Positions 3,086 through 63,370 of a stretch of 64,000 nt of DNA are shown in pieces. Location: the NCBI GenBank assembly GCA_963741715.1, contig CAVUJA010000001.1, positions 2,056,205 to 2,120,204 of the forward strand, read 5' to 3'. Position numbers and translations under genes: made by a program. Under the pieces are notes generated by a model, which saw only the letters and a list, made by a program, of their open reading frames with translations, did not search any database and had not been told where the DNA came from. The stretch is from an uncultured Acidobacteriota bacterium (GTDB lineage: Bacteria > Acidobacteriota > Vicinamibacteria > Vicinamibacterales > Fen-181). Position 1 is the stretch's first letter. Each line of letters begins with the position of its first letter.

Positions 3086-3139
3086 TTGCGCATTGTGCAT
3101 TGTGCATTGTGCGTTGTGCATTGTGCGTTGTGCGTTGAC
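3086..3139. repeat. 7-bp tandem array (CATTGTG/CGTTGTG, about 7 units)
   Basis: Direct reading gives cattgtg cattgtg cattgtg cgttgtg cattgtg cgttgtg cgttgac. It lies between the lhr stop and the nei start. Confidence 0.9.
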
Positions 3140-3162
3140 CTGCTCTTCTACACTCGTTGGCC

Positions 3163-3990
3163 ATGCCAGAAGGTGACACGATCTTCCGCGCGGCTCGCAC
3201 GCTGCATCTCGCCCTGGCCGGACGGGCGGTCACGCGGTTCGAGACCGTGCTCCCGTCGCTTCAGCGGGTGCACGACGACCGGCCGATCACCGGTCGGACG
3301 GTGAACGCGGTGCGCGCGGTCGGCAAGCACCTGCTGATGGCGTTCTCGGGCGGGCTCGTCCTGCGCACTCACATGCGGATGAACGGCAGCTGGCACGTCT
3401 ACCGGCCGGCCGAGCGCTGGCAGCGCGGCCGCGCGGCGATGCGCATCGTCGTCGGCAACGCCGAATACGTGGCGGTGGCGTTCGACGTGCCGGTGGCGGA
3501 GTTCGTGGCGGCCCGGGAACTGGGGCGTCATTCGGAGTTGTCGGCGCTCGGGCCCGATCTGCTGGCGGAGGATTTCGACGCCGGGGAGGCCGTCGCCCGG
3601 ATGCGCGCGCGGCCGGCCGCGGCGATCGCCGACGCGCTCCTCGACCAGCGCATCGCGGCAGGCGTCGGCAATGTCTTCAAGTCGGAGGTGTTGTTCGTCT
3701 GCGGCGTGGATCCGTTCCGGCTCGTGTCCACGCTCTCGGACGGGGACCTCAGGCGGGTGATCGACGCGAGCCGCCAGCTGCTGAAGGCGAACGTGATCGA
3801 CGCCGCGCGGTCCGGGGCGCCCGGGTGGGGCGGCGCCCGCACGACCACGCGGCGGATGAATCCGGCGGCGAGGCTGTGGGTCTACGGACGCGCCGGGCGG
3901 CCGTGCCGGCGCTGCGGGACGCCAGTCAGCTGCCGCAAGCAGGGCGCGAACGCGCGCGGCACCTATTGGTGCCCGACGTGCCAGAAGTAA
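3163..3990 (+). CDS. nei: Fpg/Nei family DNA glycosylase (endonuclease VIII-like)
   Basis: The ATG at 3163 gives an N-terminal MPEGDT, with the catalytic Pro2 required by the family. The track start at 3157 is a TTG. The C-terminus carries a zinc finger, CRRCGTPV...YWCPTCQK. Confidence 0.9.
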   Translation: MPEGDTIFRAARTLHLALAGRAVTRFETVLPSLQRVHDDRPITGRTVNAVRAVGKHLLMAFSGGLVLRTHMRMNGSWHVYRPAERWQRGRAAMRIVVGNAEYVAVAFDVPVAEFVAARELGRHSELSALGPDLLAEDFDAGEAVARMRARPAAAIADALLDQRIAAGVGNVFKSEVLFVCGVDPFRLVSTLSDGDLRRVIDASRQLLKANVIDAARSGAPGWGGARTTTRRMNPAARLWVYGRAGRPCRRCGTPVSCRKQGANARGTYWCPTCQK

Positions 3991-4023
3991 GGACGGACGG
4001 GCATCCTGTGCCGGCATCGTGCC

Positions 4024-4079
4024 GTGTGTGCATTCTGCATTCTGCATTCTGCATTTTGCATTTTGCATTCTGCATTGAC
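4024..4079. repeat. 7-bp tandem array (CATTCTG/CATTTTG, about 7 units)
   Basis: Direct reading gives cattctg x3, cattttg x2, cattctg, cattgac. It lies just downstream of the nei stop. Confidence 0.9.
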
Positions 4080-4135
4080 CCTCCGTAAGCTGACCCTCCG
4101 TAAGCTGACACTCCGCGAGCTGACACTTGACGCAA
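4076..4135. repeat. 15-bp tandem repeat (TGACCCTCCGTAAGC, about 4 units, decaying)
   Basis: The units read tgaccctccgtaagc, tgaccctccgtaagc, tgacactccgcgagc, tgacacttgacgcaa. It is contiguous with the preceding heptamer array. Confidence 0.85.
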
Positions 4136-4164
4136 GTCCGCCTTCCCTGAGATACTCCACTTCG

Positions 4165-4254
4165 ATGTTGACGATCCGCACCACCGCGATGCCGATGCCG
4201 ATGCCCATGTCGATGGGCATGGGGGTCGGCGTGGTGCGTGCGATCGACGGCTAG
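4165..4254 (+). CDS. candidate Met-rich leader peptide (29 aa, MLTIRTTAMPMPMPMSMGMGVGVVRAIDG)
   Basis: There are six ATG codons within codons 9-19, which is very unusual in a GC-rich genome. An intrinsic terminator follows, and the unit lies upstream of hom-metY. No clear SD is visible. Confidence 0.45.
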   Translation: MLTIRTTAMPMPMPMSMGMGVGVVRAIDG

Positions 4255-4281
4255 TCCAGCTGCAAGCGATCGACACCAGCA

Positions 4282-4322
4282 CCCGCCGACCTGGGACGCC
4301 AGACGGCGGGTTTTGTTTTTTT
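4282..4322 (+). terminator. intrinsic terminator (attenuator 1)
   Basis: The hairpin cccgccgacctgg-gacg-ccagacggcggg is followed by ttttgttttttt. Confidence 0.75.
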
Positions 4323-4333
4323 GTGCGCCCATC

Positions 4334-4501
4334 ATGAACGACACCTTCGACGCCGCCATCGTTGAACGGAACGCCGCCAGCATCCCGCCGGCGTCGTCGA
4401 CCTCCGCCCGCGCGCGCACCACCGTCGCGACCGCGACGACCATGACCGTGCGCATGTGGACCATGTCCACGATGCGCATGCAGCCCAACGAGAGCGGGTG
4501 A
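4334..4501 (+). CDS. candidate Thr/Met-rich leader peptide (55 aa, ...RTTVATATTMTVRMWTMSTMRMQPNESG)
   Basis: There are 8 Thr and 5 Met codons in a 23-codon stretch near the C-terminus. A second terminator lies 31 nt downstream and the hom start is at 4601. No clear SD is visible. Confidence 0.35.
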   Translation: MNDTFDAAIVERNAASIPPASSTSARARTTVATATTMTVRMWTMSTMRMQPNESG

Positions 4502-4532
4502 TCCGGCAGCATTCCCGAGAGATTTCGACGGG

Positions 4533-4575
4533 GCCGTCATCCGCAAGAGGTTGCGGGTGGCGGCTTTTTTCGTTT
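4533..4575 (+). terminator. intrinsic terminator (attenuator 2) immediately upstream of hom
   Basis: A 14-bp stem, gccgtcatccgcaa-gagg-ttgcgggtggcggc with 2 G-U pairs, is followed by ttttttcgttt. It lies 26 nt before the hom SD and ATG. Confidence 0.75.
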
Positions 4576-4600
4576 GGCGAGACCAACGGGGAGAAGGCAG

Positions 4601-5638
4601 ATGTCGCTGCGAATCGGATTGGTGGGCTTCGGCACGGTCGGACAATCGGTGGCGAGGCTGCTGCTCCACGGCGGCGATCGGCGCCTGCGCCTCGTCAGGG
4701 TGTGCGGACGCCCTGGCGGCCGGGAGCGGCCTGCCTGGCTGCCCGCGTCCGTCGCCTGGACCACGCGTTTCGACGATCTCGTCGCCCGCGACATCGACGC
4801 CGTGGTCGAGCTGGTCGGCGGCGTGCAACCCGCACGGCAGTGGCTGCACAGGGCGCTGCTCGGCGGGAAATCGGTGGTGACGGCGAACAAGCAACTGGTG
4901 GCCGAGCACGGGCCCGAACTGCTCGCGCTCGCCGCCCGCGCCGGTGGCGCGCTCCGCTACGAAGGCGCCGTTGCCGGCGGCATCCCGGTCATCCGCGCGA
5001 TCGAGGACGGCCTCTCCGGCGATCGCCTGGTCAGGGTCGCCGGCATTCTCAACGGCACGTGCAACTACATCCTCACCCGCATCGAACAGCAGGGCCTGCC
5101 CTTTGCCGACGCGCTGCGCGAGGCCCAGACGCTGGGGTATGCGGAGGCGGACCCATCCGCAGACGTCGAGGGCTTCGACGCGCGGGCGAAGCTCTCGATT
5201 CTCTGCCAGGCCGCTTTCGGCATCCGCGTGCGCCCTTCGCAGGTAGAATGCGCATCGATCGCCTCCATCGCACACGAAGACTTCGCCGAGGCGCGGCAGC
5301 AGGGCTGCACGATTCGCCAGGTCTCGCGCGCGGCGCGCGTCGGGGCATCGCTGTCCGAGGTCGTGGCGTCGGTTCGCCCCGCGCTGGTGCCCCTCGACAG
5401 CCCGTTCGCGAAGGCGAGCGGATGCCAGAACGTCGTCTCGGTGCACGGCGAATTCGGCGGCGAGACGCTGTTCGCCGGCCAGGGCGCCGGCGGCGACGCG
5501 ACGGCGGTGGCGGTGGCTTCGGACCTGCTGGCCGTCGCCGCGAGAAGGAGCCAGGTTCCGTTGCCGCGCCCGATCGCGGTGACTGCCAATCCTGGGAGGC
5601 GAGGGCTGGCGGTCGCCTCACAAGTTGCGGGATTCTGA
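4601..5638 (+). CDS. hom: homoserine dehydrogenase
   Basis: The protein starts [15 protein letters not shown] (NAD-binding fold) and carries [11 protein letters not shown] and [21 protein letters not shown] motifs. An SD, ggggagaagg, lies upstream of the ATG at 4601. Confidence 0.9.
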
Positions 5639-5702
5639 CGCCCGCGTCGATCAACCTCGACCCGGAATGGGGCTCGGCCCCTTTCACAGGAAGGACAACG
5701 AC

Positions 5703-7019
5703 ATGTCGAACGAGCACGCCTACCGTCCCGCCACCATCGCCCTGCACGGAGGGCACCAGCCCGACTCGTCGAGCCGGGCGAGGGCCGTGCCGATCTACCA
5801 GACCACGTCGTACGTCTTCGACTCGGCCGACCACGCCGCCGACGTCTTCGCGCTGAAGACGCCCGGCAACATCTACACCCGCATCACGAATCCGACCACG
5901 GCGGTGCTCGAGGAACGCCTGGCGCAGCTGGATGGGGGCGTGGGCGCGCTGGCGCTCGCGTCGGGCCAGGCGGCCATCACGCTGGCCGTGCTCAACCTGA
6001 CGAGCGCGGGCCAGAACTTCGTCTCCACCCGGTCGCTCTACGGCGGCACCTACAACCTGTTCCGGCACACGCTGGCACGGTTCGGAATCGAAGCGAGGTT
6101 CGTGGACTCCTCCAACGTCGATGAGGTCGAAGCGGCGATCGACGGGAATACGCGGCTCGTGTACACGGAGTCGATTGGCAACCCGAAGAACAACGTCGAC
6201 GACTTCGACGCGATCGCCGCGGCGGCCCATCGGCACGGCCTGCCGTTCGTCGTCGACAACACCGTCTCGCCGTTCATCTTCCGCCCCTTCGACCACGGCG
6301 CCGACGTCATCGTCTACTCGCTGACGAAGTTCGTCGGCGGGCACGGCACGTCGATTGGCGGCGCGATCGTCGACTCCGGCCGGTTCGGCTGGGACAACGG
6401 CCGGTTCCCCGAGTTCACCGAGCCCGACCCGTCCTACCACGGCCTCGTCTTCGCCAGCCTTCCCGCGCCGTACATCACCAAGGCACGCGTCCAGCTGCTG
6501 CGCGACCTCGGCCCGTGCCTGTCGCCGTTCAACGCCTTCCTGTTCGTCCAGGGGCTCGAGACGCTGCCGCTGCGCATCAACGCACACTGCCTCAACGCCC
6601 TCGCCGTGGCCGAGTGGCTGGGCGCCAACCCGCACGTCGCCTGGGTCAACTACCCGCTGCTCCCCGGGCACCCCGACTACGAGCGTGCGAAGCGGTACTT
6701 CCCGAAGGGCGCGGGCGCGATCGTCGGATTCGGCATCCGCGGCGGTCTCGAAGCGGGCAAGCGGGTCATCGACGGTGTCCGGCTGTTCAGCCACCTGGCG
6801 AACATCGGCGACGCGAAGAGCCTGATCATCCACCCCGCCTCCACGACGCACCAGCAGCTGTCGGCGGAGGAACGGGTGGCGAGCGGCGTCACCGACGACT
6901 TCATCCGCCTGTCGATCGGCACGGAGGACATCGCCGACATCATCGAGGACCTGGAGCAGGCGATCGTCGCGTCGCAGCAGCAGACAGGCTCGCACAAGCC
7001 GCTGCTCCTGGTGGGCTGA
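5703..7019 (+). CDS. metY: O-acetylhomoserine sulfhydrylase (Cys/Met PLP-dependent family)
   Basis: The start region [17 protein letters not shown]...[10 protein letters not shown]...NPT matches the family. [10 protein letters not shown] contains the PLP-binding lysine region. Confidence 0.9.
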
Positions 7020-7577
7020 CGGCCAGGCTTGGCCCTGCGCTCCGTGCGCTCCTCGGGATCGATGCCATCCGCATGAGCCGTTCGACGGTTTCAACCACGA
7101 GCCCACAGAGGCTGTCACGCGCGACGGCATCGCGGCTCGGCCACCGGCTCCCACGCCCCCGGTGGGCGAGCCGGGAGGGGCGGCGGGGCGGCGCCGGCAC
7201 GACAAGCACGGGCGCGGGAGGCTTCTCGTGGCGGCGCGGCCCCGCCGCCCCTCGCGCCACGGGCTTCGCCCGCGGCGCCGATGCCCGCGGTCACCGGATC
7301 TCTCACGGGCGACGGGTGCCGATCTGCCCTTGTGGGCTCTGTGAGCTCGGTGGTTCCTCCCGCATTCCATCCGCCCGAGAATGTGCACAATCCTGAGCCT
7401 GCGCTCACTTGCGTTGAGTCGGGGCTCTCGGTCCGTCGCGACGCTGCGAGTGGCGGGTGGCCGGGCTGGCCGCATCTGCCCCTCGACGGCGCTCGGGGCA
7501 CGGTGAGCCTTGCCGAACCGTGGCGACCGCGCGGGCCGACGCGTCCCGCGGCCGAGCGCGGAGCGTCTGAGCGCGCA

Positions 7578-9057: not shown

Positions 9058-9225
9058 CGCGTGGGCACCCCTCCACCATCTTAACAAGCCGCCGGCGTTC
9101 GGCTCGCCAATGACGAGCTTTGAGGCCGCTGCGGTGGCTGTTATGCTCGAAGAAAGGGTTGCCCGCAACGACCACGAATCGGTCCGGTCTGTGTTGCACG
9201 AACAGGCCGCAGCTGCGCATCGAGG

Positions 9226-9403
9226 CTGGATGCCTTGAGGGGCTGGAATCCTTGCGAATGAGTCAAGTTCTCGCGACGCCATCCGGGCCCCTCAAGGCAT
9301 CTAGAGCCCCGCGCTCGCGCGGGGCCAGCCAACAGCGTTTCTGGTCTAGCGAGGCGGGCGTCGTCGCCGGACATGCTTGGCGGTCCGAGGCCCGCCTCGC
9401 TGG
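9226..9403 (+). repeat. structured intergenic repeat element, copy A (about 178 bp, three nested hairpins)
   Basis: About 90% identical by eye over about 133 bp to the reverse complement of 27909-28080. Hairpin 1 is gatgccttgagggg...cccctcaaggcatc, hairpin 2 is gccccgcgc-tcg-cgcggggc, and hairpin 3 is agcgaggcggg...cccgcctcgct. Confidence 0.85.
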
Positions 9404-12916: not shown

Positions 12917-13001
12917 CCTCCCTCGTCCCTCGTCCCCCGTCCCTCGTCCCTCGTCCCTGTTAACTCTTCCTTCTTCCCTCTTCCCTCTTCCCTCTTCCCT
13001 G
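12917..13001. repeat. 7-bp tandem arrays (CCCTCGT x5, then CCCTCTT x4)
   Basis: They fill the convergent gap between the truA stop (12916) and the amidohydrolase stop (13002). Confidence 0.9.
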
Positions 13002-14819: not shown

Positions 14820-16370
14820 GTGGCGAAGGCGGTATCATGCTCGGGTCGCCCTGCGCCCCCGTCGAGGAGCGACGTGCGTCGGGCAACCGCGGCCTTGTCG
14901 CGCGATACACGACGCCAGCCACGGGCCGCGACCCGGGAGAGGATCTTCGTGGGGCTGTTCACATCGTTCCAGTTGAAGTCGCGCGACGCCGACACCAGGA
15001 AGCGTGCGGCGATCTCGCTCGGCGTTCGGGGCAGGAGGTCTGCGATCCCGATGCTGCAGCCACTGCTCGACGACCCCGAGTGGCCGGTGCGGCAGGCGGC
15101 GGTGGACGCGCTCGGTGCGATCGGCGACGCGTCCGCCGTGCCGCTGCTGATCGCCGCCGTGAAGCAGGCCGACCAGGTGCGCGACGAGGCGGGCGCCAGC
15201 GCGCTGCGGGCGTCGGCGGTCGAGGCATTCGGGCGAATCGGCGCGGCCGGGGTGGCGCCGTTGCTCGAGGCGCTGCGCGACAAGCACGCGAAGCTGCGCG
15301 AATCGGCCATCGCGGCGCTCGGCGCCGTCGGCGGCGACCGGGCGGCGGCCGCGCTGGCCGAGACGCTGCGCGACGAGCGGTCGAGCGTCAGGCAGGCCGG
15401 CGCGTCGGCGCTGGCCCGCGCGGCGGGCGTCGCAGCCGTGCCCGCGCTGAGGGAGGCGCTGAACCACAAGGACCCGACGACGCGGAGGTGCTGCGCGAGC
15501 GCGCTGGGCGCACTCGACTCGGCCGAGTCGGTGGCCGCGCTGCGCCATGCGCTGGCCGACCGCGACAAGTCGGTGCGCGAGGCCGCCGTCGACGCCCTCG
15601 CCGCGCTCGGCAGCCGCGCGGCGATCGCCGGGCTGGTGGCGGAGCTGCCGGCGGCGGATCGGGAGTTGAAGGGCACGATCGCGGCCCGGCTGAAGGCGAT
15701 GACCTGGACGCCCGCCGACGCGGACGAGCGCGTCGTCCATGCCGCGCTGCACGGCCGATACGAGGAGGCGGCCGCGGAAGGCGCGGCGGCGGTGGACGCC
15801 CTCGTGGCGGCGCTGGCGGACCGCGACCCCGGCGCGCGCCGCGGCGCAGCCGGCGCGCTCGGACGCCTGGGCGATCCCCGCGCCGCCGCGGCGCTGGTCG
15901 CCCTCTTCAAGGACGGCGACGCCTCGGTGAGAGAGGCCGCCGTCGGGGCGGTCGGGAGCATCGGGCTGCCCGCGGCCGACGCCGTGCTCGACGCGCGGCG
16001 GGACAGGAGCGCGACGGTCAGGACGGCGGCGGCCGCCGCGCTCTCGCGAATCGGCCACGCACGCGTCGCGGCCGCGCTCGTCGCCCGCCTCTGCTCGGGG
16101 TCGCCCGCCCGGCACGCCGGCCGCGACCTGCGCGTCGTCGCCACGCGCGCCGAACTCGACGCCGCCCGTGCGGCGGCCGACGCGCTCGAACGCCTGCTGG
16201 AACACGGCGCCGCGGAGCTGCCGCCCGATTCGGTGCGGCGCTGCGCGGAACTGGCCGACGTCATCCTGATCGAACCCGGAGAGGCGCCGGGGCAGAGCGA
16301 GACGGTGGATCTGGAGGCGGCCAGGCAGTCCGCGCACGACGAGATGCGCCGGCGGGGCAGCGGGCAGTAG
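14820..16370 (+). CDS. HEAT-repeat (PBS-lyase-like) protein
   Basis: There are more than 10 tandem copies of the D..VR..AA.ALG.IGD..A...L pattern. The GTG start is uncertain. Confidence 0.7.
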   Translation: MAKAVSCSGRPAPPSRSDVRRATAALSRDTRRQPRAATRERIFVGLFTSFQLKSRDADTRKRAAISLGVRGRRSAIPMLQPLLDDPEWPVRQAAVDALGAIGDASAVPLLIAAVKQADQVRDEAGASALRASAVEAFGRIGAAGVAPLLEALRDKHAKLRESAIAALGAVGGDRAAAALAETLRDERSSVRQAGASALARAAGVAAVPALREALNHKDPTTRRCCASALGALDSAESVAALRHALADRDKSVREAAVDALAALGSRAAIAGLVAELPAADRELKGTIAARLKAMTWTPADADERVVHAALHGRYEEAAAEGAAAVDALVAALADRDPGARRGAAGALGRLGDPRAAAALVALFKDGDASVREAAVGAVGSIGLPAADAVLDARRDRSATVRTAAAAALSRIGHARVAAALVARLCSGSPARHAGRDLRVVATRAELDAARAAADALERLLEHGAAELPPDSVRRCAELADVILIEPGEAPGQSETVDLEAARQSAHDEMRRRGSGQ

Positions 16371-16388
16371 TAGGCAGTAGGCAGTGAG
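16363..16388. repeat. short 7-bp array (GTAGGCA x3)
   Basis: The sequence reads gcagtagtaggcagtaggcagtgaggg. It overlaps the HEAT gene stop in a convergent gap. Confidence 0.6.
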
Positions 16389-18721: not shown

Positions 18722-18829
18722 GTGCAGAATGCGCAGTGCCGATGCACAATGAAGGGTGAAAGCGAGGGGACGCGGGGCCGCGCGAGCCTGTCCTGCGTCC
18801 TGCACGCGTTGTACTGCATCGCGCATTGA
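18722..18829. repeat. two short opposed heptamer-like arrays of the GCATTNT family
   Basis: The left arm is gcagaat gcgcagt gccgatg cacaatg. The right arm is tgcacgc gttgtac tgcatcg cgcattg. The arms are only imperfectly complementary. Confidence 0.55.
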
Positions 18830-18839
18830 TCGGTAACCC

Positions 18840-19931: not shown

Positions 19932-19977
19932 ATCGCGCCCGCGGCGTCCATGCACGACGAACCCGGATCCGGCCCGG

Positions 19978-42600: not shown

Positions 42601-42625
42601 AGCGCGTGACAACTGTGATCTTCAA

Positions 42626-42880
<255 letters not shown>

Positions 42881-48500: not shown

Positions 48501-48816
48501 GCGCCCAGTAGATGTCGGTGCCTTCGTCGAAGATCACGTAGACGAACGAGTAGCCGAAGTCGGAGAACCCGCGCACCGCCCGCACGTGCGGCGCGCCCAG
48601 CATGGCGGTGACGATCGGATACGTCACCTGGTCCTCGACGACGTCGGGGCTGCGGTCCCATCGCGAGTAGATGATGACCTGCGTGTCGCTGAGATCGGGG
48701 ATGGCGTCGAGGGGAACGGTCCGCACCGCCACCGCGCCCGCGACGGCCGCGATGGCAATCAGCAGCAGGACCAGGAACTTGTGCTCGACGGAGAAGTCGA
48801 TGACGCGGTTGATCAT
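45543..48816 (-). pseudogene. cusA: CusA/CzcA-type heavy-metal RND efflux pump, interrupted by a 1-nt insertion near 46815
   Basis: MINRVIDFSVEHKF... runs to ...WYSSWAPGWLSL in one frame. VFRHVTPDRISQEELVNQLNTALELPGVSNAWTMPIKARIDMLTTGIRTP... continues in the next frame (gene strand agtctc[g]gtcttc). The length is 3n+1. Confidence 0.88.
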
Positions 48817-48865
48817 GGTTCGGCCCCGACGTGCGACCTCTATCCGGCTTGCGGCGCCGCCATCG

Positions 48866-48928
48866 GCTTACGACTCTCGACTTTCGACTGAGGACCCTTG
48901 ACTCTCGACTCTTGACTCTCGACTACCT
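48866..48928. repeat. 7-bp tandem array (ACTCTCG/ACTTTCG/ACTCTTG, about 8 units) inside the cusB-cusA junction
   Basis: It belongs to the same family and has the same orientation as the array at 45444-45545. Confidence 0.9.
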
Positions 48929-48976
48929 GGCGTACTGCCTCGGGTTCTTCTCGAACTTCTGCTCGCACTCGAGCGA

Positions 48977-50017
48977 TCAGAAGTAATACGTCTGGCCGTC
49001 GTGCGTCACGGTCTTGCCCGCGGCGGCCGCCTTCTTGGGATCGAGGCTCATGCCGCACACGACGTCGGCGACGGACGCGGAAACCGGCCCTGCGGCCGCG
49101 GCCTTCAGGCGCGTCTCGGAATCGAGGCGGAACGTCCCGGACACGACGACGCGTTCGCCCGCCATCACGCCCTTCGTGATTTCGACCTGGTCGCCCATGC
49201 GCCAGCCCGTTTCGATGGCTCGCGGCTCGAAGTAGCCATCGCCGCGGTCCACGAACAGCGTCTTCCGCACGCCCGAGTCGATCACGGCGTCGGCCGGGAC
49301 GGTGATGGCCTCCGGCCTGTCCAGGTGCAGCACCAGGTCCACGAACAGGTCGGGGCGGAGCACGTTGCCGGGGTTGTCGAGCTCGAACCGCGTCTTGAAC
49401 ACGCGCGTCTGCGGATCGAACTGCGGGAGCACGTCGCTCATCCGCGCCTGGAACTCCCGGCCCTGGTAGGTCACCGTGGCCGTCGCGCCGGGCGTGAGGA
49501 ATTCCCGGTCCTTCTCGAAGATCTCCGCCATCACCCAGACGTGCGAGAGGTCCGAGATGAAGTACATCTCCGTCCCCTTGTCGAACCCCTGCTCGGGCAG
49601 GATGCTGCGCGAAATCACGAAGCCATTGATGGGGGAGTAGATCCTCACTTCCTGAGGCGCGACGCGCGTCTGCTGGATCTCCGAGATCTGAAGGCCGCTC
49701 ATCCCCAGGGTCCTCAGGGAGCCCACCGCCACCTGCAGGCTGAGCTGGGCGGCCGGCTCGGCCTTCCCGGCGGCATCGGCAGACACGGGCACCAGGCGCA
49801 TGCCGCACATCGGGCAATCGCCGGGACGATCCGACCGGTAGGCGGGGTGCATGGGACAGGTGTAGATCACCGCCTTCTGCTGGGCGGACGTGCCCGTCAC
49901 CGTTGAGGAGCGCCGCCCGCCAATCCACGACCCGGCCGCGAACGCGAACCCGAGACCCGCCAGGACAACGAGAAGCAGGGCAGATTCCTTCATGGCATGC
50001 GATGTAGGAGAAGGCAT
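48977..50017 (-). CDS. cusB: CusB-like RND periplasmic adaptor with a heavy-metal-binding N-terminal motif and a C-terminal YHS/TRASH domain cut by an in-frame TGA
   Basis: CPMHPAYRSDRPGDCPMCGMRLVP is followed by an MFP core. The C-terminus reads DVVCGMSLDPKKAAAAGKTVTHDGQTYYF-TGA-SLECEQKFEKNPRQYAR-TAG, so the frame continues to 48923. Confidence 0.8.
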   Translation of the reverse strand: MPSPTSHAMKESALLLVVLAGLGFAFAAGSWIGGRRSSTVTGTSAQQKAVIYTCPMHPAYRSDRPGDCPMCGMRLVPVSADAAGKAEPAAQLSLQVAVGSLRTLGMSGLQISEIQQTRVAPQEVRIYSPINGFVISRSILPEQGFDKGTEMYFISDLSHVWVMAEIFEKDREFLTPGATATVTYQGREFQARMSDVLPQFDPQTRVFKTRFELDNPGNVLRPDLFVDLVLHLDRPEAITVPADAVIDSGVRKTLFVDRGDGYFEPRAIETGWRMGDQVEITKGVMAGERVVVSGTFRLDSETRLKAAAAGPVSASVADVVCGMSLDPKKAAAAGKTVTHDGQTYYF

Positions 50018-50434
50018 CCAAGTCGATCAACAAGGATACTAGCCAAGTCAACCTCAACAGCCAATGGGACGAAGGTCCCGGTGGCGCGCAGCCCGCCACC
50101 GAGCACCCTACTTGACCCGCAGCGTGACGAGCTCCTGCCGGGCGGCGGCCGGGCGCCCATTGGAGGAATCGACTCGGGCGTCTCGTTATGAAGGCGCCTC
50201 CCCTGACGTCCGCTGCCCGGCCAGCAGGGCGGCAACCGACGCCGCGGCCGCGACCAGTATGACCGACCAGGGATGCCGTCTGCTCATGGTGATCGCCTCG
50301 TCGCCCTGCGTCGAAGAGACGCTCGGCTCAGCCATTGCGGCCCAGCTCCACCGTGGAAGCGCAGGTTCGCCGGCTGCGCGGGAGCGGGCGGCGCGGCGGC
50401 GAGCGAGGGAACGACCGCGCCGGCGCGGGCCGGG

Positions 50435-50500
50435 GACGCCGCAAGCCGCAGGTCGCAAGCCGCCGGCCGGCGACGCCGCAGGTCGCAGGCCGCCGGCCGG
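50435..50500. repeat. degenerate heptamer array / about 30-bp direct duplication (reverse complement of the GCGRCYT family)
   Basis: gacgccgcaagccgcaggtcgcaagccgccggccgg is followed by cgacgccgcaggtcgcaggccgccggccgg. Confidence 0.7.
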
Positions 50501-50618
50501 ATGGGCCCTGATCCTTGAGCGCCGGGCCCGCGCATGCTAACGTAGCCGCTAAGGGCCTCGGCTGAGCGGTGTCGTCTTGCGGGGGGCAGCGCTGCCGGCC
50601 GGGGTCGAAGGCCCGCTT

Positions 50619-50702
50619 GCGAAAGTGGCGGAACTGGCAGACGCGCCGGACTTAGGATCCGGTAGCCGCAAGGCTATGGGGGTTCGAGTCCCCCCTTTCG
50701 CA
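50619..50702 (+). tRNA. tRNA-Leu (anticodon UAG)
   Basis: The acceptor stem is GCGAAAG/CTTTCGC and the anticodon stem-loop is CCGGA-CTTAGGA-TCCGG. A long variable arm (TAGCCGCAAGGCTAT) and a T arm (GGGGG-TTCGAGT-CCCCC) are present. No CCA is encoded. Confidence 0.92.
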
Positions 50703-50824
50703 TTCCTGCCAGCCTTCGCTGGTGATCGGACGCGAAGGCTGCCGCGCCGAAGCCCGAAGGGCGGAGGCGGGCTGTCACCTCTCTTTTTGTCCTAGTGCAC
50801 GCCTCCCTGCTGCCGATAACCTCA

Positions 50825-52115
50825 ATGAAGAGCGAATTTGTCGACGTCTCGGACACGAAGAAGACCCTGGTCATCGAAATCCCGAGTGATCAGGTGGATA
50901 GCGAGATCGACCGCGTCACCCGGCACCTCGGCCGGACGGTGCGGGTCCCGGGATTCCGGCCGGGCAAAGTGCCCCCGGGCGTGGTGAAGCAGCGCTTCCG
51001 CGGCGAGATCCTGCACGAGGTGGCGCACGAACTGGTGCCGAAGGCCGTGGACGAGGCGCTGCGCGAGCGCGGCGTCGAGCCGATTGCCACGCCGGACGTG
51101 CACGACGTGGACGTGAAGGAAGGGCAGCCGCTCAGGTTCACGGCGTCGTTCGAAACGGTGCCCCCCGTCGACCCCGGCGACTACGCCGCGATCCACGTGC
51201 GGCGCCACCCGGCGGCGGTCGACGACGAGGCGATCGACGCGGCGCTGGAACGGCTGCGGCAGCGGGCGGCCCGCTACGAGCCGGTGGACGACCGCGGCCT
51301 CGAGACGGGCGACACGGCGGCGGTGGACCTCAGGCGGCGCGCCCTCGAGGCCGACGGGACGGGGGGGGCCGAGGAGAAGCACGAGAACGTGTCCTTGGAG
51401 GTCGGGGCGGCGGTCAACCCGCCCGGCTTCGACGAGCAGTTGACGGGCATGCGGGCGGGCGACGAGAAGACCTTCACGGTCCACTACCCTGCCGACTACG
51501 CCATCGCCGAACTGCAGTCGAAGGACGTCGAGTACCTCGGTGAAGCTGCGCGCCGTCCGCCGCCGCGTCGTGCCGCCGCTCGACGACGACCTGGCCAGGG
51601 AGGTGAGCGACGCGGACACGCTCGAGAAGCTGCGCGAGCAGGTGAAGGAAGGCCTGGGCAAGGAGGCGCAGCGCGAGGCGGACCGCCAGCTCCGCAGCGA
51701 CCTGCTGAAGGCGCTGGCCGCCAAGGTCGCCTTCGAGGTCCCCGAGGTGCTGATCGAGCGCGACATCGACCGGCGCACGCAGGATCTCATCCGCCACCTG
51801 ATCGAGGAGCGGATCGACCCGCGGCAGGCGGGCATCGACTGGGAGGCGTTCCGGCAGGAGCAGCGCCCGGCGGCCGACGAGGCCGTGAAGGCGATGATCG
51901 TGCTCGACGAGGTGGCGCGGCGCGAACAGCTCGCGGTGAGCGACGAGGAGTTGGAGCGCGAGGTGGGGACGTTCGCCGAGCGGTCGGGACGCACCGCCCC
52001 GGCCGTGCGCGCCCAGCTGGAGAAGGACGGGGAACTGGAGCGGCTGCGCACCGGGCTGCGGCGGGAACGGGCCGTGGAGTACCTCCTCTCGCGTGTTACA
52101 ATCGCGGAAGACTAA
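50825..52115 (+). pseudogene. tig: trigger factor, interrupted by a 1-nt insertion at about 51539
   Basis: MKSEFVDVSDTKKTLVIEIP...GFRPGKVP...AELQSKDVEYL is in one frame. VKLRAVRRRVVPPLDDDLAREV... continues in the next frame (tacctc[g]gtgaag). The length is 3n+1. Confidence 0.88.
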
Positions 52116-54108: not shown

Positions 54109-54236
54109 ACGCAGGATTCAGGAGTCGGGAGTCGGGAGTCAGTCAGCACGCTGGATCCAGCCCCCCGCTTCCGGCGTCTGAGTACCTGGGAGGCGTGGCA
54201 CGACCGAATCCCGAATCCTGACTCCCGAATCCTGAC
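54109..54236. repeat. opposed 7-bp arrays (GGATTCA/GGAGTCG arm versus CGAATCC/TGACTCC arm)
   Basis: The left arm (54109-54146) and right arm (54203-54236) are about 85% complementary over about 30 nt. They are separated by about 56 nt and lie between clpX and lon. Confidence 0.88.
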
Positions 54237-56641: not shown

Positions 56642-56676
56642 GCAGGATTCAGGAGTCGGGATTCAGGATTCGGGAC
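56642..56676. repeat. 7-bp tandem array (GGATTCA/GGAGTCG/GGATTCG, 5 units)
   Basis: The sequence reads gcaggattcaggagtcgggattcaggattcgggac. It lies between lon and engB. Confidence 0.88.
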
Positions 56677-56691
56677 GTCACGCTGTTCCGC

Positions 56692-57342
56692 ATGTCACGC
56701 CGACTCACTTCCGCTGACTTCGTCATCTCCGCCGTCGGGCCGCGCGACTTCCCGATCGACGCCAGGCCGGAGGTGGCGCTGGTCGGGCGCTCGAACGTCG
56801 GCAAGTCCTCCCTGATCAACGCCCTGGTGCGGAAGTCGATCGCGCGGACGAGCGCCAGCCCGGGAAAGACCCGGCAGGTGAACGTGTACCGCGTGACGCC
56901 CGCGGGCGCGGGCGCGTTCTACCTGATGGACCTGCCCGGCTACGGCCACACGGCCGGCGGCGACAAGGCGCGGCAGGAATTCAGCGCGCTGAGCGCCCTG
57001 TACTTCGAAACGCGAACGGGCAGGCGAGGTGATGGTGAGCCCGGCCGGGCGCCCGCGCCGCCACCGCGCTCGACGCTCTGCGCCGTGGTGCTGGCGATCG
57101 ACGCGCGCCACCCGGGCATGGCGAGCGACGTGGAAGCGATGCGCTGGCTGCACGAGCTCGGGCTGCCTTACCTGCTGGTGGCCACCAAGATCGACAAGCT
57201 GTCGCAGTCGGAGAAAGCGAAGCTGAAGGGCGTCTGCCTGGAGGCATTCGGCGCCGCCCCGCTCGCGACGTCGGCCGTGGACGGCGACGGGCTCGACGAA
57301 CTCTGGAAGCGGCTGCACGAATGGACCGCACGGCCGGTGTAG
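56692..57342 (+). CDS. engB: ribosome biogenesis GTPase YihA/EngB
   Basis: The G1 motif GRSNVGKSSLINAL, DLPGYG and TKIDK (NKxD-like) are present. Confidence 0.85.
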   Translation: MSRRLTSADFVISAVGPRDFPIDARPEVALVGRSNVGKSSLINALVRKSIARTSASPGKTRQVNVYRVTPAGAGAFYLMDLPGYGHTAGGDKARQEFSALSALYFETRTGRRGDGEPGRAPAPPPRSTLCAVVLAIDARHPGMASDVEAMRWLHELGLPYLLVATKIDKLSQSEKAKLKGVCLEAFGAAPLATSAVDGDGLDELWKRLHEWTARPV

Positions 57343-57497
57343 TGGCTAGTGGCCAGTGATCAGTGGCTTGTGGGTCACGCGTAACAATGTGGCAGACTAA
57401 CCACTGACCGCTAGCCACTAACCACTAGCCACTGACCACTAGCCACTAGCCACTGACCACTAGCCACTTGCCACTGACCACTAGCCACTAACCACTA
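57342..57497. repeat. opposed 7-bp arrays (GTGGCTA/GTGGCCA arm versus about 14 units of CCACTAG/CCACTGA/CCACTAA)
   Basis: The left arm (57342-57378) is the approximate reverse complement of the long right arm (57399-57497). This is the largest array in the window. Confidence 0.92.
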
Positions 57498-58481: not shown

Positions 58482-58580
58482 GCCGGCTGGCGGCTTGCGG
58501 CTTGCGGCCGGGGTCCGGCCTGGCGGCCTGCGGCGGTGCGTGGCCGCGAGTATGGCCGCGAGTTGCGGGTCGCGAGCCGC
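58482..58580. repeat. degenerate 7-bp array (TTGCGGC/CTGCGGC/GCGAGYY family)
   Basis: The sequence reads ggctggcggcttgcggcttgcggccggggtccggcctggcggcctgcggcgg...gcgagtatggccgcgagttgcgggtcgcgagcc. Confidence 0.65.
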
Positions 58581-58632
58581 CGGCCAGACTGTGCTACAAT
58601 TGGTGGTTCGGACTACTCTGAAGGAGCTCGAC

Positions 58633-58902
58633 GTGAAGGAAGGTATCCACCCGAAGTACAAGGAAGTCGACGTGCGGTGCGCCTGCGGGGCGACCTGGAA
58701 GACCCGGTCCACCAAGGACGAGCTCCGCCTCGAAATCTGCTCGCAGTGCCACCCGTTCTTCACCGGCCGCCAGAAACTGATCGACACCGAGGGCCGCGTG
58801 GAACGGTTCACCAAGAAGTTCGGCGCGCAGACGTCGGAAAGCCGCAAGGCGGCCGCGAAGGCCAAGAAGGCGGCCACGAAGGAAGCTACGCCCACGGCGT
58901 AG
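58633..58902 (+). CDS. rpmE: 50S ribosomal protein L31
   Basis: A GTG start follows the SD gaaggag. (V)[26 protein letters not shown]...[13 protein letters not shown] carries the zinc-type CxxC motifs. The C-terminus has a Lys/Ala-rich extension. Confidence 0.88.
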
Positions 58903-59070: not shown

Positions 59071-59174
59071 GTCATTCAGCATTCGGCATTCGGCATTCCG
59101 CATTGCGCGTCTTGCCCGTTGTGCATTTTGCATTGTGCATTCTGCATTTTGCATTGTGCATTGTGCATTCTGCT
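59071..59174. repeat. 7-bp tandem arrays (GCATTCG x3 and related, then TGCATTN x7)
   Basis: The units read cattcag cattcgg cattcgg cattccg cattgcg ... gtgcatt ttgcatt gtgcatt ctgcatt ttgcatt gtgcatt gtgcatt. It runs into the stop codon of the mrfB-like gene (59173). Confidence 0.92.
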
Positions 59175-60720: not shown

Positions 60721-60735
60721 CGGTGTCCGGGACGA

Positions 60736-63300
60736 TTATCGGATAACGGCGCCGAGAATATCGAGCGCCACCGTCTTCGCCATCGGCCCCACTTCCCCGA
60801 GCGGGCCGACGCACGACGGGCAGCCAGCCTCGCAGGGGCACGTCGCGATCAGGTCGCGGGTCTTCGCGAGCAGCGGGGCGCGCATGGTGAACAACGGCTC
60901 GGAAAGGCCGATGCCGCCAGGGTAGTTGTCGTAGACGAAGATGCGCGGCTCGTCGAAGTCCACCGGCGCCTGGCCCGCCGAGCGTCCCCTGCCCACGCGC
61001 GCCACCGCGCCGACCTCCGGGCCCGCCACCCCCTGCGGGCCGTCGAGCGCGCTGCCGTTGCCGATCGACACGCCGACGTCGTGCCGGTCACACATCAGCA
61101 GCAGCTGCGCGATCTGCCGCATCGCGAACGCAACGCCCACCACGCCGTCGCGCCGATCGTCGCCACCGTAGGGCAGCGCCGTCATCACCCGCCGCGGAAT
61201 CGTGAACCAACAGCCGGTCGTGTGCATCTCCTGCTCGGGCAGGTCCAGCTCGCCCGAGCCGACGTTCTCGTTCGTGTAGAACTTGATCTTCTTGAAGCCG
61301 ACCACGCGCGAGACGACGTGCACTTCACCGTGGGACCAGGCGGCAGACAGGCTGGAAGCCTGTCCTACCGCGTCGGGCGCGGCGCCCTGCGCCGGCGGCT
61401 CCGGCCCGCTACCCGCCTCGGGCCCTGCCGTGTCGAACGTGTCGAGGATCGTGACGCGGTCGTACCGGATGGCGTCGGTGTAGTAGTCGCACTCCACCTG
61501 GCGGACGTACGCCTTGCGGTTGTCGAAGTCCAGCCGCTCCACCTGGTAGAGCGTGCCTTCCACGATGTAGATCGCCTTCTCGTGCAGCGTGGAGGGCGCG
61601 CTGGTGAAGTCGGTCTCGCCAATCACCCGCGCGTGGTCGGTGTTGTCCACGATGACGAAGTTGTCGGACGAGACCGATCGCAGGCTGATCGCGTCGGCGG
61701 GGTACGACTCGTTGGTCCAGTGCCAGTGCGCCTCCTCGCCGGGCGCCTGGCCCTCGGCCAGGTGCACGAGCCCCTCCTCCGCGAGGATCCGCAGGATGTC
61801 CTGCACGTTCTCGCACCCGAAGACCTCGGTGGTCCCGAAGGGCAGCTCGAAGGCGGCGCACTTGATGTGCGCCAGGAGGATCTGCAGGTTGTCGGGGTTG
61901 ATCAGCGCGTGCTCGGGCGACGCGTCGAAGAAGTACGACGGGTTGCGCACGACGTACTGGTCGAGCGGCGCGCTGCTGGCCACGAGAACCGCCGCCGACT
62001 GCCCGGCGCGCCGGCCCGCGCGGCCCGCCCGCTGCCACGTCGCGGCAATCGTGCCCGGGTAGCCCGCCAGCACCGCCACGTCGAGCGCGCCGATGTCGAT
62101 GCCCAGCTCGAGCGCGCTCGTCGCCACGACCGCGCGCACGTCGCCGTCGCGCAGCCCCTTCTCGATCTCGCGCCGCCGGTTCGGCAGGTAGCCCCCTCGG
62201 TAGCCCCGCACCACGTCGTCCGCGCCCGGCGGCCCCGACACGCTGTCTTTCAGGTACCGCGTGAGGATCTCGGTGACCAGCCGGCTCTGGGCGAACACGA
62301 TGATCTGCAGGCCGCGGCGCAGGAACTCGAGCGAGACGCGGCGCGTTTCCTGGGTGTACGAGCGGCGGATCCCGAGCTGGCGGTTGACGACGGGCGGGTT
62401 GACGAAGAAGAAGAACTTCTCCCCGCGCGGCGCGCCGCTCTCGTCCACCAGCTCGAACGGGCGCTCGGTCAGGCGCTCGGCCAGCTGGCGCGGGTTGGCG
62501 ATGGTCGCCGACGAGCAGATGAACACGGGGTCCGACCCGTAGTGGCGGCACACGCGGCCGAGCCGGCGCAGCACGTTGGCGAGGTGGCTGCCGAAGACGC
62601 CGCGGTAGGCGTGGAGCTCGTCGATGACGATGAACCTGAGGTTCTCGAACAGCCGCGCCCACTTCGGGTGGTGGGGCAGGATCCCGGAGTGCAGCATGTC
62701 CGGGTTGGTCAGGATGACCTGCGCGCGGGCGCGAATCGCGCGCCGGGCGTCCTGGGGCGTGTCGCCGTCGTAGGTGAAGACGCCGAGGTCGAGCCCCGCG
62801 GATTCGTCGATCACCCGGGCGAGGCGATCCAGTTCGGCGAGCTGATCCTGGGCCAGCGCCTTCGTGGGAAACAGGTAGAGGGCGCGCGTCGACGGGTCCG
62901 AGAGAATCGCGTTCAGGACCGGGACGTTGTAGCACAGCGTCTTGCCCGACGCCGTCGGCGTCGTCACGACGACGTTCTCGCCGCGCATCGCGCAAGCCGC
63001 GGCCGCGGCCTGGTGGGTGAAGAGCCGCTGGATGCCGCGGGATTCCAGCGCCTCGACCAGGCGCGGGTCGAGCCCCTCGGGCATCGGGGCAAACTGCGCC
63101 TCGGAGGGCGGCATCCGCCGCACCGCCGTCACCACCTCGTCCGGAGAATCGGCGTAGTCCTGGTGCCACGAGGGCACCAGGTGGTGCATGGCGGCCTGGA
63201 GGGCCTGTTCGCGCGACGGCCCCCCGGCCATCGAGCGGAGGGCGAGCAGGTCGCTCTGCGCCGCCTGCTGCTCGTCGTCACGGCGGGTGGATCGGGCCAT
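60736..63300 (-). CDS. YprA/MrfA-like DEAD/DEAH-box helicase with a C-terminal DUF1998 (4-Cys zinc) domain
   Basis: PTASGKT (motif I), VIDELH (motif II), SATI and QRAGRAGRR (motif VI) are present. The C-terminus reads CPCEAGCPSCVGP. Confidence 0.8.
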   Translation of the reverse strand: MARSTRRDDEQQAAQSDLLALRSMAGGPSREQALQAAMHHLVPSWHQDYADSPDEVVTAVRRMPPSEAQFAPMPEGLDPRLVEALESRGIQRLFTHQAAAAACAMRGENVVVTTPTASGKTLCYNVPVLNAILSDPSTRALYLFPTKALAQDQLAELDRLARVIDESAGLDLGVFTYDGDTPQDARRAIRARAQVILTNPDMLHSGILPHHPKWARLFENLRFIVIDELHAYRGVFGSHLANVLRRLGRVCRHYGSDPVFICSSATIANPRQLAERLTERPFELVDESGAPRGEKFFFFVNPPVVNRQLGIRRSYTQETRRVSLEFLRRGLQIIVFAQSRLVTEILTRYLKDSVSGPPGADDVVRGYRGGYLPNRRREIEKGLRDGDVRAVVATSALELGIDIGALDVAVLAGYPGTIAATWQRAGRAGRRAGQSAAVLVASSAPLDQYVVRNPSYFFDASPEHALINPDNLQILLAHIKCAAFELPFGTTEVFGCENVQDILRILAEEGLVHLAEGQAPGEEAHWHWTNESYPADAISLRSVSSDNFVIVDNTDHARVIGETDFTSAPSTLHEKAIYIVEGTLYQVERLDFDNRKAYVRQVECDYYTDAIRYDRVTILDTFDTAGPEAGSGPEPPAQGAAPDAVGQASSLSAAWSHGEVHVVSRVVGFKKIKFYTNENVGSGELDLPEQEMHTTGCWFTIPRRVMTALPYGGDDRRDGVVGVAFAMRQIAQLLLMCDRHDVGVSIGNGSALDGPQGVAGPEVGAVARVGRGRSAGQAPVDFDEPRIFVYDNYPGGIGLSEPLFTMRAPLLAKTRDLIATCPCEAGCPSCVGPLGEVGPMAKTVALDILGAVIR

Positions 63301-63339
63301 GGTGGAGGATGGTACCAGCCGGCCGTGGGTCGATCAAGT

Positions 63340-63370
63340 GGCGAAAGGCGAATAAATGGCGGAAGGCGGG
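63340..63370. repeat. short degenerate heptamer array (GGCGAAA/GGCGAAT/GGCGGAA)
   Basis: The sequence reads gtggcgaaaggcgaataaatggcggaaggcggg. Confidence 0.45.

Follow-up and report, generated by a model that had tools for sequence, protein, structure and literature searches.

What are the seven-base tandem repeats that occupy so many of the gaps between genes in this stretch of DNA, and what puts and keeps them there? The stretch, hereafter the window, is 64,000 nucleotides long and comes from the genome of an uncultured member of the Acidobacteriota, order Vicinamibacterales (contig CAVUJA010000001.1, positions 2,056,205 to 2,120,204); its GC content is 65–73%, about 69% overall. It contains ∼23 tandem arrays with a period of exactly 7 and 3–15 units each. 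These arrays are heptanucleotide repeats of the long simple sequence repeat (LSSR) class, similar to the short tandemly repeated repetitive (STRR) sequences: they have the period, the bias toward non-coding DNA and the recurring unit families that mark the class. The class is already known, and the window is a new, unusually dense and multi-family instance of it, not a new kind of element. Two additions are worth testing, namely the turnover of units at conserved hairpin sites and the orientation of the hairpins with the G-rich arm first.

Tandem Repeats Finder (TRF) gave clear period-7 scores at 3086, 4029, 12919, 19981, 30659, 32019/32075, 40745, 42625, 45453, 48863, 50438, 54112/54204, 56643, 57340/57396, 58484 and 59073/59119. 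An earlier note on this DNA, made from the sequence alone, had listed 19 such loci; 16 of the 19 are clear by TRF, but three (16369, 18722 and 63340) are marginal. On the gaps between genes, TRF returned 17 period-7 rows with a score ≥40, compared to none in 100 dinucleotide-preserving shuffles. Similarly, a strict scan for self-match at lag p found 12 arrays at p = 7, 0–1 at p = 4–6 and none at p = 8–13. Self-match of non-coding DNA at lags of 7, 14, 21 and 28 was 0.370, 0.336, 0.338 and 0.320, against a baseline of ∼0.28 at other lags, and coding DNA showed period 3 only. Indeed, on the two points on which the earlier note had staked its claim, the comparison with other periods and the comparison of non-coding with genic DNA, we find an excess at period 7 and in non-coding DNA only.

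In a gene map curated by hand, 7460 bases of the window (11.7%) are non-coding, and the arrays cover 1118 of them (15%). All period-7, -14 and -21 arrays with a score ≥40 are 0–2% coding, with the exception of an in-frame 21-bp repeat within lon, and overlap of arrays with coding sequence (CDS) is limited to the stop or start codon itself (the TAG at 57340, the ATG at 42674, and 59173). The curated map bears out the earlier statements that the arrays lie outside credible genes and that several abut start or stop codons. The further statement that nearly every gap of >40 bp has an array was overstated: 18 of the 39 gaps of >40 nt carry one (5/19 between 1 and 30 kb, 13/20 between 30 and 64 kb), and the density in the window is 0.3 arrays per kb. 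In an Rfam scan of the whole window, tRNA-Leu (50619–50702) was the sole family match, and the arrays matched no family at gathering score. A CRISPR array is ruled out, as the units are contiguous 7-mers and not repeats of 23–50 nt with unique spacers.

The same signal is found in related genomes. The nearest relatives by protein search are only ∼80% identical; the Lon protein of the window shares 92% identity with its counterpart in an uncultured Acidobacteriota metagenome-assembled genome (MAG), and every one of the best 80 relatives is a Vicinamibacterales or Vicinamibacteria MAG. We pooled the window with these 80 related loci (81 sequences, 1.58 Mb; relatives are labelled L001, L022 and so on). 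The TRF run on relatives that the earlier note had asked for gave the excess at periods 7, 14 and 21 and the non-coding bias: the numbers of non-redundant arrays were 93, 59 and 37 for periods 7, 14 and 21, but 13–20 for each of periods 8, 10, 11 and 13. The 15% of the pooled DNA that is non-coding holds 125 of the 149 arrays of period 7, 14 or 28, while 191 of the 244 arrays with a period of 3n (78%) are coding. Per kb of gap, there are 1.38 arrays between tandem genes, 1.18 between convergent genes and 0.57 between divergent genes, and the closer gene boundary is the upstream stop for 85 arrays and the downstream start for 56. Array density among the relatives ranges from 0 to 0.85 per kb and is highest in L022. 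L022 is a short-read assembly, and arrays are present in other short-read MAGs as well as in long-read MAGs; thus, no single sequencing technology can account for them as an artefact.

The arrays occur in two forms, either as an array followed by a loop and an inverted array of the same family or as a single array. About one third are of the paired form, with loops of 6–80 nt and hairpins of 25–35 bp, an architecture that is new relative to the earlier note, which missed it. Among 202 intergenic arrays in the pooled set, 31% have an inverted partner within 200 nt, compared to 4.5% in the control. Paired elements in the window lie at 32019–32137, 54112–54236, 57340–57497 and 58484–58590, with a weaker one at 40745–40838; as single strands, the window hairpins fold with −65 to −83 kcal/mol (z −4.3 to −7.2 versus shuffles). 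Single arrays are, if anything, less structured than shuffles (0 kcal/mol for 12917–13001, z +1.4 for 42601–42690). In all 22 pairs examined, a stop codon lies no more than a few bases from the beginning of the left arm; the next start, or its AAGGA-like ribosome-binding site, follows shortly after the end of the right arm, and none of the 22 has a T-run after this arm. Of 27 pairs, 21 have the G-rich arm in front (P = 0.006); several of these pairs are orthologous and hence not independent, and the property is strand-symmetric, being the same on both strands.

The individual arrays of the window, identified by TRF unless another basis is given, are as follows.

3086–3137, plus strand: single array of GCATTGT, 7.4 units, between the stop of an Lhr-like helicase gene (3047) and the start of an Fpg/Nei-like gene (3163); genes by Pfam.
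4029–4076, plus strand: single array of GCATTCT, 6.9 units, 38 nt past the nei stop, adjoined by a 15-bp repeat.
12917–12958, plus strand: CCCTCGT, 6 units (TRF and lag scan), the first base directly after the stop of a truA-like gene; RNA folding energy 0.
12965–13001, plus strand: CCCTCTT, 5 units (TRF and lag scan), the last base adjoining the stop of a convergent amidohydrolase gene; with the preceding array it occupies the entire 85-nt gap.
16369–16385, plus strand: AGTAGGC, 2.4 units, marginal, overlapping the stop of a HEAT-repeat gene.
18722–18830, no strand assigned: degenerate inverted pair of GCAnAAT-like units, marginal, with a fold not better than shuffles (z −0.6).
19978–20012, minus strand: GGGATTC/GGGAGTC, ∼5 units, ending 2 nt before the start of a leuC-like gene.
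30656–30738, minus strand: ACATTCG/ACATTCT, 11 units (higher-order unit of 21 bp), between the divergent photolyase and aldose-epimerase genes (Pfam).
32019–32045, plus strand: left, G-rich hairpin arm of TGGCTSG units in a convergent gap; the hairpin folds with −73.5 kcal/mol (z −7.2).
32070–32137, plus strand: right arm of the same hairpin, GCCACCA/GCCACTA, 9.7 units (TRF, lag scan and fold).
40745–40838, plus strand: GCGACTT/GCGGCYT, 7.6 units at 40745–40797, with a short inverted partner at ∼40815–40838 (TRF and fold); the array begins 8 nt upstream of the start of an M20 peptidase gene, in a divergent gap.
42625–42674, plus strand: single, unstructured array of GCCACTA, 7.1 units (TRF and fold), whose final base is the A of an ATG; the open reading frame (ORF) that starts at 42674 encodes a membrane protein of 68 amino acids and is conserved with an identical start in L022.
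45453–45538, plus strand: CGACTCT, 12.3 units, 4 nt past the stop of an AcrB/CusA-like gene; read in the sense direction of the flanking genes, which are on the minus strand, the unit is AGAGTCG.
48863–48924, plus strand: CGACTYT, 8.7 units, between CusB-like and CusA-like genes.
50438–50499, minus strand: GCGRCYT family, ∼8 units, upstream of the tRNA-Leu promoter region.
54112–54142, plus strand: left, G-rich arm of GGATTCA/GGAGTCG, 4.4 units, 4 nt past the clpX stop; the hairpin folds with −68.1 kcal/mol (z −4.7).
54204–54236, plus strand: right arm of CGAATCC/TGACTCC, 4.5 units (TRF and fold), ending 12 nt before the lon ATG; relatives have orthologous hairpins.
56643–56675, plus strand: single array of GGATTCA/GGAGTCG, 4.7 units, between the lon stop and the engB start.
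57340–57373, plus strand: left arm of TAGTGGC, 4.9 units, whose first three bases are the engB stop TAG; the hairpin folds with −65.5 kcal/mol (z −6.0).
57396–57497, plus strand: right arm of CCACTAG/CCACTGA/CCACTAA, 14.6 units with 14- and 21-bp higher-order units (TRF and fold).
58484–58590, plus strand: left arm of the GCGGCTT family at 58484–58534 and its complement at ∼58560–58590, between the stop of an aldo-keto reductase gene and the promoter-like TGCTACAAT of rpmE; the hairpin folds with −82.9 kcal/mol (z −4.3).
59073–59104, plus strand: GCATTCG, 4.6 units.
59119–59173, plus strand: GCATTGT/GCATTYT, 7.9 units, ending at the stop codon of a convergent minus-strand gene.
63340–63370, plus strand: interrupted run of GGCGRAA, marginal, seen in the gap sequence; L001 has GGCGAAA in the same gap.

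The TGCTACAAT that directly follows the hairpin at 58484–58590 lies within 58575–58640, resembles an extended −10 element and precedes rpmE (ribosomal protein L31; start GTG at 58633). A similar sequence, GTGCTACA, is present at the orthologous rpmE site of L001.

The hairpin sites can be followed between species in L001, which is syntenic with the window from 42.9 to 64 kb and has genes of ∼85% nucleotide identity. The gap between clpX and lon contains the GGATTC/GGAGTC family in both genomes, but the copy numbers differ. The units downstream of lon are GGATTCA in the window and, at the same place in L001, GGCTCAG, and in the next two gaps the window has hairpins of TAGTGGC/GCCACTA and of GCGGCTT where L001 has hairpins of GGCTCAG/CTGAGCC. 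Among sequences with a clpX–lon gap of ≥45 nt, 17 of 50 (49 relatives and the window) have a lag-7 match ≥0.45 in this gap, with other lags at ∼0.25, and the heptamer unit is different in nearly every genome. In other clades this site is taken by ordinary GC hairpins, or there is no gap at all (TGATG overlap). The lon–engB gap likewise contains inverted periodic arms with units that differ between genomes. In some genomes (L011, L017 and L019), the arms of the orthologous lon–engB hairpin have a period of 8 (ACGAATTT, CTCCGTGC), and the periodic-arm hairpin is therefore not strictly heptameric.

The earlier note had proposed that the units belong to a few recurring families, and this is real: 23 array pairs are within one mismatch of each other, compared to 4.5 ± 2.2 for random heptamers. 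The families in the window are GCATTNT, GCCACYR, GGAKTCR, GCGRCYT and CCCTCKT. CGACTNT, which had been listed as a separate family, is the reverse complement of GGAKTCR (AGAGTCG versus GGAGTCG on the other strand). Families are also connected by single-base changes, in a chain from GCATTGT through GCATTCT, GCATTCG, GGATTCG and GGAGTCG to AGAGTCG. Distant loci share whole blocks: 40744–40780 matches the complement of 50434–50470 at 92% over 37 nt, with four variant units in the same order, and 19975–20007 and 56645–56677 are 88% complementary over 33 nt, as an inverted copy. L022 has composite mosaics at 2744–2861, 4118–4310 and 6343–6535 made of as many as four or five adjoining heptamer families in constant order (CGGCTWT, CTACTGN, CTGCTTC, GCCCCWT), as two direct copies and part of a third, inverted copy. 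One of these copies is located directly upstream of a tRNA-Leu promoter. The flanks around arrays of one family showed no shared ends of the kind that mark a classical mobile element. It is well supported that the arrays change in steps of 7, 14 and 21 bp, that blocks are copied between loci, and that selection keeps the arrays out of genes.

Units are also shared across genomes, with 43 identical cross-genome pairs compared to 13 ± 4 predicted by composition, although part of this excess is due to common descent. The exact sequence (GCCACTA)x4 is present on at least 120 metagenome contigs with a GC content of 0.43–0.70, some of them from human gut, and several of these contigs carry further heptamer families and inverted pairs. 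Thus, neither the class nor the GCCACTA unit is confined to this lineage. Two human-gut contigs from outside the Acidobacteria, with a GC content of 0.55–0.56, have (GCCACTA)n arrays at 1985–2040 (L116) and 941–996 (L126); the L116 array is located between a TATAAT-like box and an AAGGAGG ribosome-binding site, and the L126 array is preceded by (CGAGCCA)x4. On a further contig, L142, which may be eukaryotic, the (GCCACTA)n array occurs together with telomere-like TTTAGGG runs. A search of metagenomes for strain variants with the exact flank-plus-array pattern gave no match, and exact-protein look-ups for L31, ClpP, EngB and P0001, made for strain comparison, found no encoding contig.

How might such arrays arise, and what might they do? 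We lean toward the reading that they are heptanucleotide repeats of the same kind as the STRR sequences and the GGGAATC repeats of Xanthomonas, generated by slippage, copied in blocks and purged from genes, with a paired form that resembles repetitive extragenic palindromic (REP) elements. As judged from their anatomy, the arrays would lengthen and shorten by 7, 14 and 21 bp at a time through replication slippage or unequal exchange, and multi-unit blocks would be copied between loci by ectopic conversion or template switching, which would leave each genome with a few unit families of its own that drift one base at a time. Since 3 does not divide 7, selection would remove arrays from coding sequence, and they would therefore accumulate between genes, mostly just after stop codons. 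The paired form would be an intercistronic or 3′-end stem-loop that insulates or stabilizes transcripts, and we infer that it works like REP elements and bacterial interspersed mosaic elements (BIMEs), based on its placement between stop codon and ribosome-binding site and on its persistence at the same gaps despite replacement of the units. Unpaired arrays may be structure-free spacers that are tolerated or mildly useful; one of them lies immediately before a start codon without a Shine–Dalgarno (SD) sequence.

Several observations weigh against this reading. Among 20 tandem-gap hairpins, the sense RNA has the better fold in only 7 (versus 13 for the antisense RNA), and single arrays have no strand bias, as 34 of 74 show a positive and 37 a negative GC skew on the sense strand; therefore, nothing points specifically to a role at the RNA level. 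Both counts are consistent with the suggestion of the earlier note that a role at the DNA level is as plausible as one at the RNA level. Since the arrays at 30656, 40745 and 50438 lie in divergent gaps that hold only promoters, a 3′-end role is impossible there. The density of 0–0.85 per kb and the overlap of clpX and lon in some clades imply that any function of the arrays is dispensable. Quasipalindrome template switching could keep the arms complementary by mutation alone, without selection. The reading gives no reason for a period of 7, and at the lon–engB site the arms have a period of 8 in a few relatives.

The main rival to a REP-like role for the paired form is a purely non-adaptive origin, in which slippage-prone heptamers expand wherever selection allows, template switching maintains the inverted pairs, and there is no function; we consider this possible, at a good deal less than an even chance. 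It is favoured by the lack of strand asymmetry relative to transcription and by the dispensability of arrays in close relatives, and it agrees with the very fast turnover of units and copy numbers between species with ∼85% identical genes, with the wide range of densities, with block copying between loci and with the occurrence of the same unit in unrelated metagenomic lineages over a broad range of GC content. However, the array–loop–inverted-array design is kept at the same gaps in many genomes despite sequence replacement, arrays are under-represented in divergent gaps and concentrated beside stop codons, and the G-rich arm is first in most pairs; moreover, the deletion bias of bacteria should erase useless gaps of 70–170 nt, as has happened where clpX and lon overlap. 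At the other extreme, the arrays might be what can be seen of an active system of small mosaic mobile elements, specific to the lineage and comparable to BIMEs, with an enzyme that writes them, a protein that reads them in phase every 7 nt, or both, a proposal we find doubtful. The writer or homogenizer would be a RAYT-like (REP-associated tyrosine transposase) enzyme, a template-switching polymerase or a reverse transcriptase. Such a system, if real, would account for the few dominant families per genome and the block order kept at distant loci, for the wholesale replacement of units at orthologous hairpins, and for the 5′ position of the G-rich arm and the identical units in unrelated phyla. 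No transposase family was matched by Pfam in the 30 window ORFs scanned, a scan that left the other window genes aside and did not specifically seek RAYT. Somewhat less probable, and in our view unlikely, are sequence-specific platforms in which each family, phased every 7 nt, is read by a DNA- or RNA-binding protein; this could be a nucleoid-associated protein, a repeat protein, one of S1, Csp and CsrA (proposed in the case of TAACTGA repeats), or a ring protein like HutP. Within a family, independent loci and L001 agree in which positions are fixed and which vary (GGA[K]TC[R]), Xanthomonas GGGANTC is reported to vary at the same position (PMC4692102), the excess of identical cross-genome units fits shared recognition, and reporter work in Nostoc suggests a heptamer-binding factor (bioRxiv 10.1101/2022.06.06.494920). 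Yet a single genome has five or more families and each relative has different ones, units are replaced at orthologous sites while the architecture is kept, block copying explains the shared variants equally well, and no candidate protein was found.

Transcription termination is a very unlikely explanation, although arrays lie just past stop codons, the hairpins are very stable, and the single arrays at 12917, 19978 and 42625 are C-rich, G-poor and unstructured on the sense strand, as expected if hairpins were canonical intrinsic terminators and C-rich single arrays were rut sites for the loading of Rho. We reject canonical intrinsic terminators because no hairpin has a T-run (0/22), although the Met/Thr leader in the window has canonical hairpin-plus-T-run terminators, and we reject rut sites because the sense-strand skew of the 74 single arrays is symmetric; in addition, several arrays are located within likely operons (an SSF gene and its small ORF; cusB–cusA). 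G-quadruplex or i-motif elements, as proposed for the GGGNATC repeats of Xanthomonas and Nostoc, have still less to recommend them: the CCCTCGT and CCCTCTT arrays (12917–13001) have 4–6 C3 tracts and L022 has GGGGATT arrays, but only 2 of the 23 window arrays have four or more G3/C3 tracts and the main families GCATTNT, GCCACTA, CGACTCT and GCGRCYT are unable to form quadruplexes, and we therefore reject this structure for most families. It is barely credible that the arrays act by phase variation, as contingency switches that toggle neighbouring genes when the copy number changes. Heptamer tracts are mutable, and the arrays at 30656, 40745 and 42625 are in promoter regions or abut start codons; however, the flanking genes are housekeeping genes (clpX, lon, engB, rpmE, leuBC, truA, nei), most arrays lie past stops, and none is inside a CDS or between −35 and −10 boxes. 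The least probable explanation, with next to no chance of being right, is an assembly artefact of a long-read MAG. The frameshifted leuC, tig, galM and acrB-like genes do suggest indel errors, but arrays of the same kind are found at orthologous gaps in dozens of independent assemblies, including the short-read L004, L006, L022 and L027, and on the many metagenome contigs described above, and errors would not be limited to non-coding DNA. A GANTC (CcrM/HinfI-type) core in the GGAKTCR family was also considered and dropped: GANTC is not depleted in coding DNA (119 observed, 140 expected), and CGACTTT units lack it.

The apparent frameshifts affect at least four conserved genes in the 64 kb. Split genes encode a leuC-like aconitase (20014–21412), trigger factor (tig, 50795–52115), aldose 1-epimerase (galM, 30822–31996), an AcrB/CusA-like pump (45543–48816) and possibly a ChaN-like protein (∼24600–25851). 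As several conserved genes are frameshifted, the source is probably a long-read assembly with indel errors; such errors are the likely cause of the split genes, and real pseudogenes are less likely. Compared to L001 (5952–6615), the window (45004–50610) has an extra 5.6 kb between the OPT transporter gene and tRNA-Leu/tig; this segment carries a CusB-like gene (HlyD_D23 and HMBD) and a CusA/AcrB-like efflux gene, and CGACTCT arrays follow both. Upstream of genes for homoserine dehydrogenase (4601–5638) and the next protein (5667–7019), the region 4166–4600 holds two small Met/Thr-rich ORFs, each followed by a GC hairpin and a T-run: the first, at 4166–4255, encodes MLTIRTTAMPMPMPMSMGMGVGVVRAIDG, and the second, at 4334–4501, ends in TATTMTVRMWTMSTMRMQPNESG. 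These ORFs, at which there is a promoter-like site (TTGACG, 17 nt, GATACT; ∼4125–4155), look like tandem leader-peptide attenuators for a Met/Thr pathway. Directly 5′ of this promoter-like site is the 15-bp tandem repeat, (TGACCCTCCGTAAGC)x3.3 at 4076–4124, which is joined to the heptamer array at 4029–4076 and could be a putative operator or array of binding sites. A dispersed element of 124 nt, unrelated to the heptamer arrays and without an Rfam match, occurs in two intergenic, inverted copies (9219–9342 and 27964–28087; 91% complementary), each with an internal palindrome (GCCTTGAGGGGC...GCCCCTCAAGGC); it could be an element like REP or a miniature inverted-repeat transposable element (MITE), or a small RNA gene. 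Two large imperfect inverted repeats in long gaps are not built of heptamers: one has 57-nt arms at 45139–45195 and 45384–45440 (74% complementary, 188 nt apart), and the other, within 7167–7261, has 41-nt arms (85% complementary, 13 nt apart).

This lineage offers a dense natural series in which the same gene boundary has the same hairpin design written in different seven-base words, and comparative genomics within it can therefore test whether the arrays are a mutational by-product, a REP-like RNA element or a protein-binding platform. In practice, short-read assemblies probably break at the arrays, gene callers can be misled by the long spurious ORFs that pass through them, and the arrays could serve as markers for strain typing.

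Intergenic heptamer repeats have been known in cyanobacteria since ∼1990, and since 2007 they have been recognized to outnumber all other long simple repeats in bacterial genomes that are large and GC-rich. The earlier note was right to compare the arrays with STRR sequences, but precedents in GC-rich genomes, of which it knew none, do exist in Xanthomonas, Burkholderia and Actinobacteria. As summarized in PMC4679880, the survey of Mrazek et al. (2007) found heptanucleotide repeats to be the most abundant class of long simple sequence repeats in bacteria, with Burkholderia, Actinobacteria, cyanobacteria and Xanthomonas among the richest genomes, and proposed polymerase slippage as their origin. 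As there summarized, this LSSR survey (Mrazek, Guo and Shah 2007) describes a class typical of large, GC-rich genomes of non-pathogens, with an origin by slippage like that suggested here; it predates any Vicinamibacterales genome, and the summary includes neither the hairpin architecture nor the turnover of units at orthologous sites. We found no report of heptamer repeats in Acidobacteria or Vicinamibacter in the literature searched, which is not proof of their absence.

Two of the known systems resemble the arrays in part. REP elements are single imperfect palindromes of 20–40 nt that are mobilized by RAYT transposases. Like REP elements and BIMEs, the arrays form short, genome-specific families that are extragenic, lie mostly 3′ of genes or between cistrons, and make inverted-pair stem-loops without a U-tract, and they enter mosaic combinations, as in L022; however, the arms in the window are tandem 7-mers and single arrays are not palindromic, as a REP unit would be. 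The TAACTGA repeats of Beggiatoaceae, Cyanobacteria and Bacteroidetes are also direct heptamer repeats between genes, some of them directly upstream of SD-less starts (MacGregor 2015, PMC4679880), and their unit is found in unrelated phyla (PMC4679880), as (GCCACTA)n is here. In contrast to the window, they consist of one unit in sets of 2–6 copies, mostly 5′ of genes, and are almost never inverted (PMC4679880).

Cyanobacteria have similar repeats. Reportedly, CCCCAGT, from the work of Mazel et al. (1990), is an example of an STRR unit. Nostoc has several heptamer families, some of which overlap start codons, and reporter data hint at a binding factor (bioRxiv 10.1101/2022.06.06.494920). Like the STRR sequences and the heptamers of Nostoc and Anabaena, the arrays belong to several families per genome, are dispersed and intergenic, and in some cases overlap start codons, and L022 carries GGGGATT, which is the Nostoc unit. 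Unlike the window arrays, STRR sequences have other units and are found only in heterocystous cyanobacteria, which are AT-richer, and few inverted pairs are reported in Nostoc (PMC4692102; bioRxiv 10.1101/2022.06.06.494920). STRR sequences in the strict sense are thus ruled out, as the units differ and the host belongs to the Vicinamibacterales and not to the cyanobacteria.

The anatomy of the arrays recurs in Xanthomonas, in which each genome has ∼186 GGGAATC arrays, 89–93% of them intergenic (Rehm et al. 2015, PMC4692102). Their mean distance to the upstream ORF is 28 nt, divergent genes rarely have them in between, and they make up 70–75 convergent inverted pairs; their position is conserved, length and sequence vary between species, and no function was found (PMC4692102). 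The arrays described here share with them a GC-rich genome, a period of 7, an intergenic location, proximity to the upstream ORF, rarity in divergent gaps and inverted pairs, as well as copy numbers and sequences that vary between related species while the position is kept. The placement and inverted pairs of the GGGNATC repeats of Xanthomonas and Nostoc thus recur in the window, but their four or more G3 tracts do not, apart from the two arrays noted above. Xanthomonas, from another phylum, has one family, whereas the window has at least five, and most of these units cannot form G-quadruplexes. With a Xanthomonas genome of ∼5 Mb, the window is also about ten times denser, at 0.3 arrays per kb compared to ∼186 arrays per genome. 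One family nonetheless comes within a single base of the Xanthomonas unit: GGGATTC/GGGAGTC in the window differs from GGGAATC at one position, and this is the same position at which the Xanthomonas unit varies.

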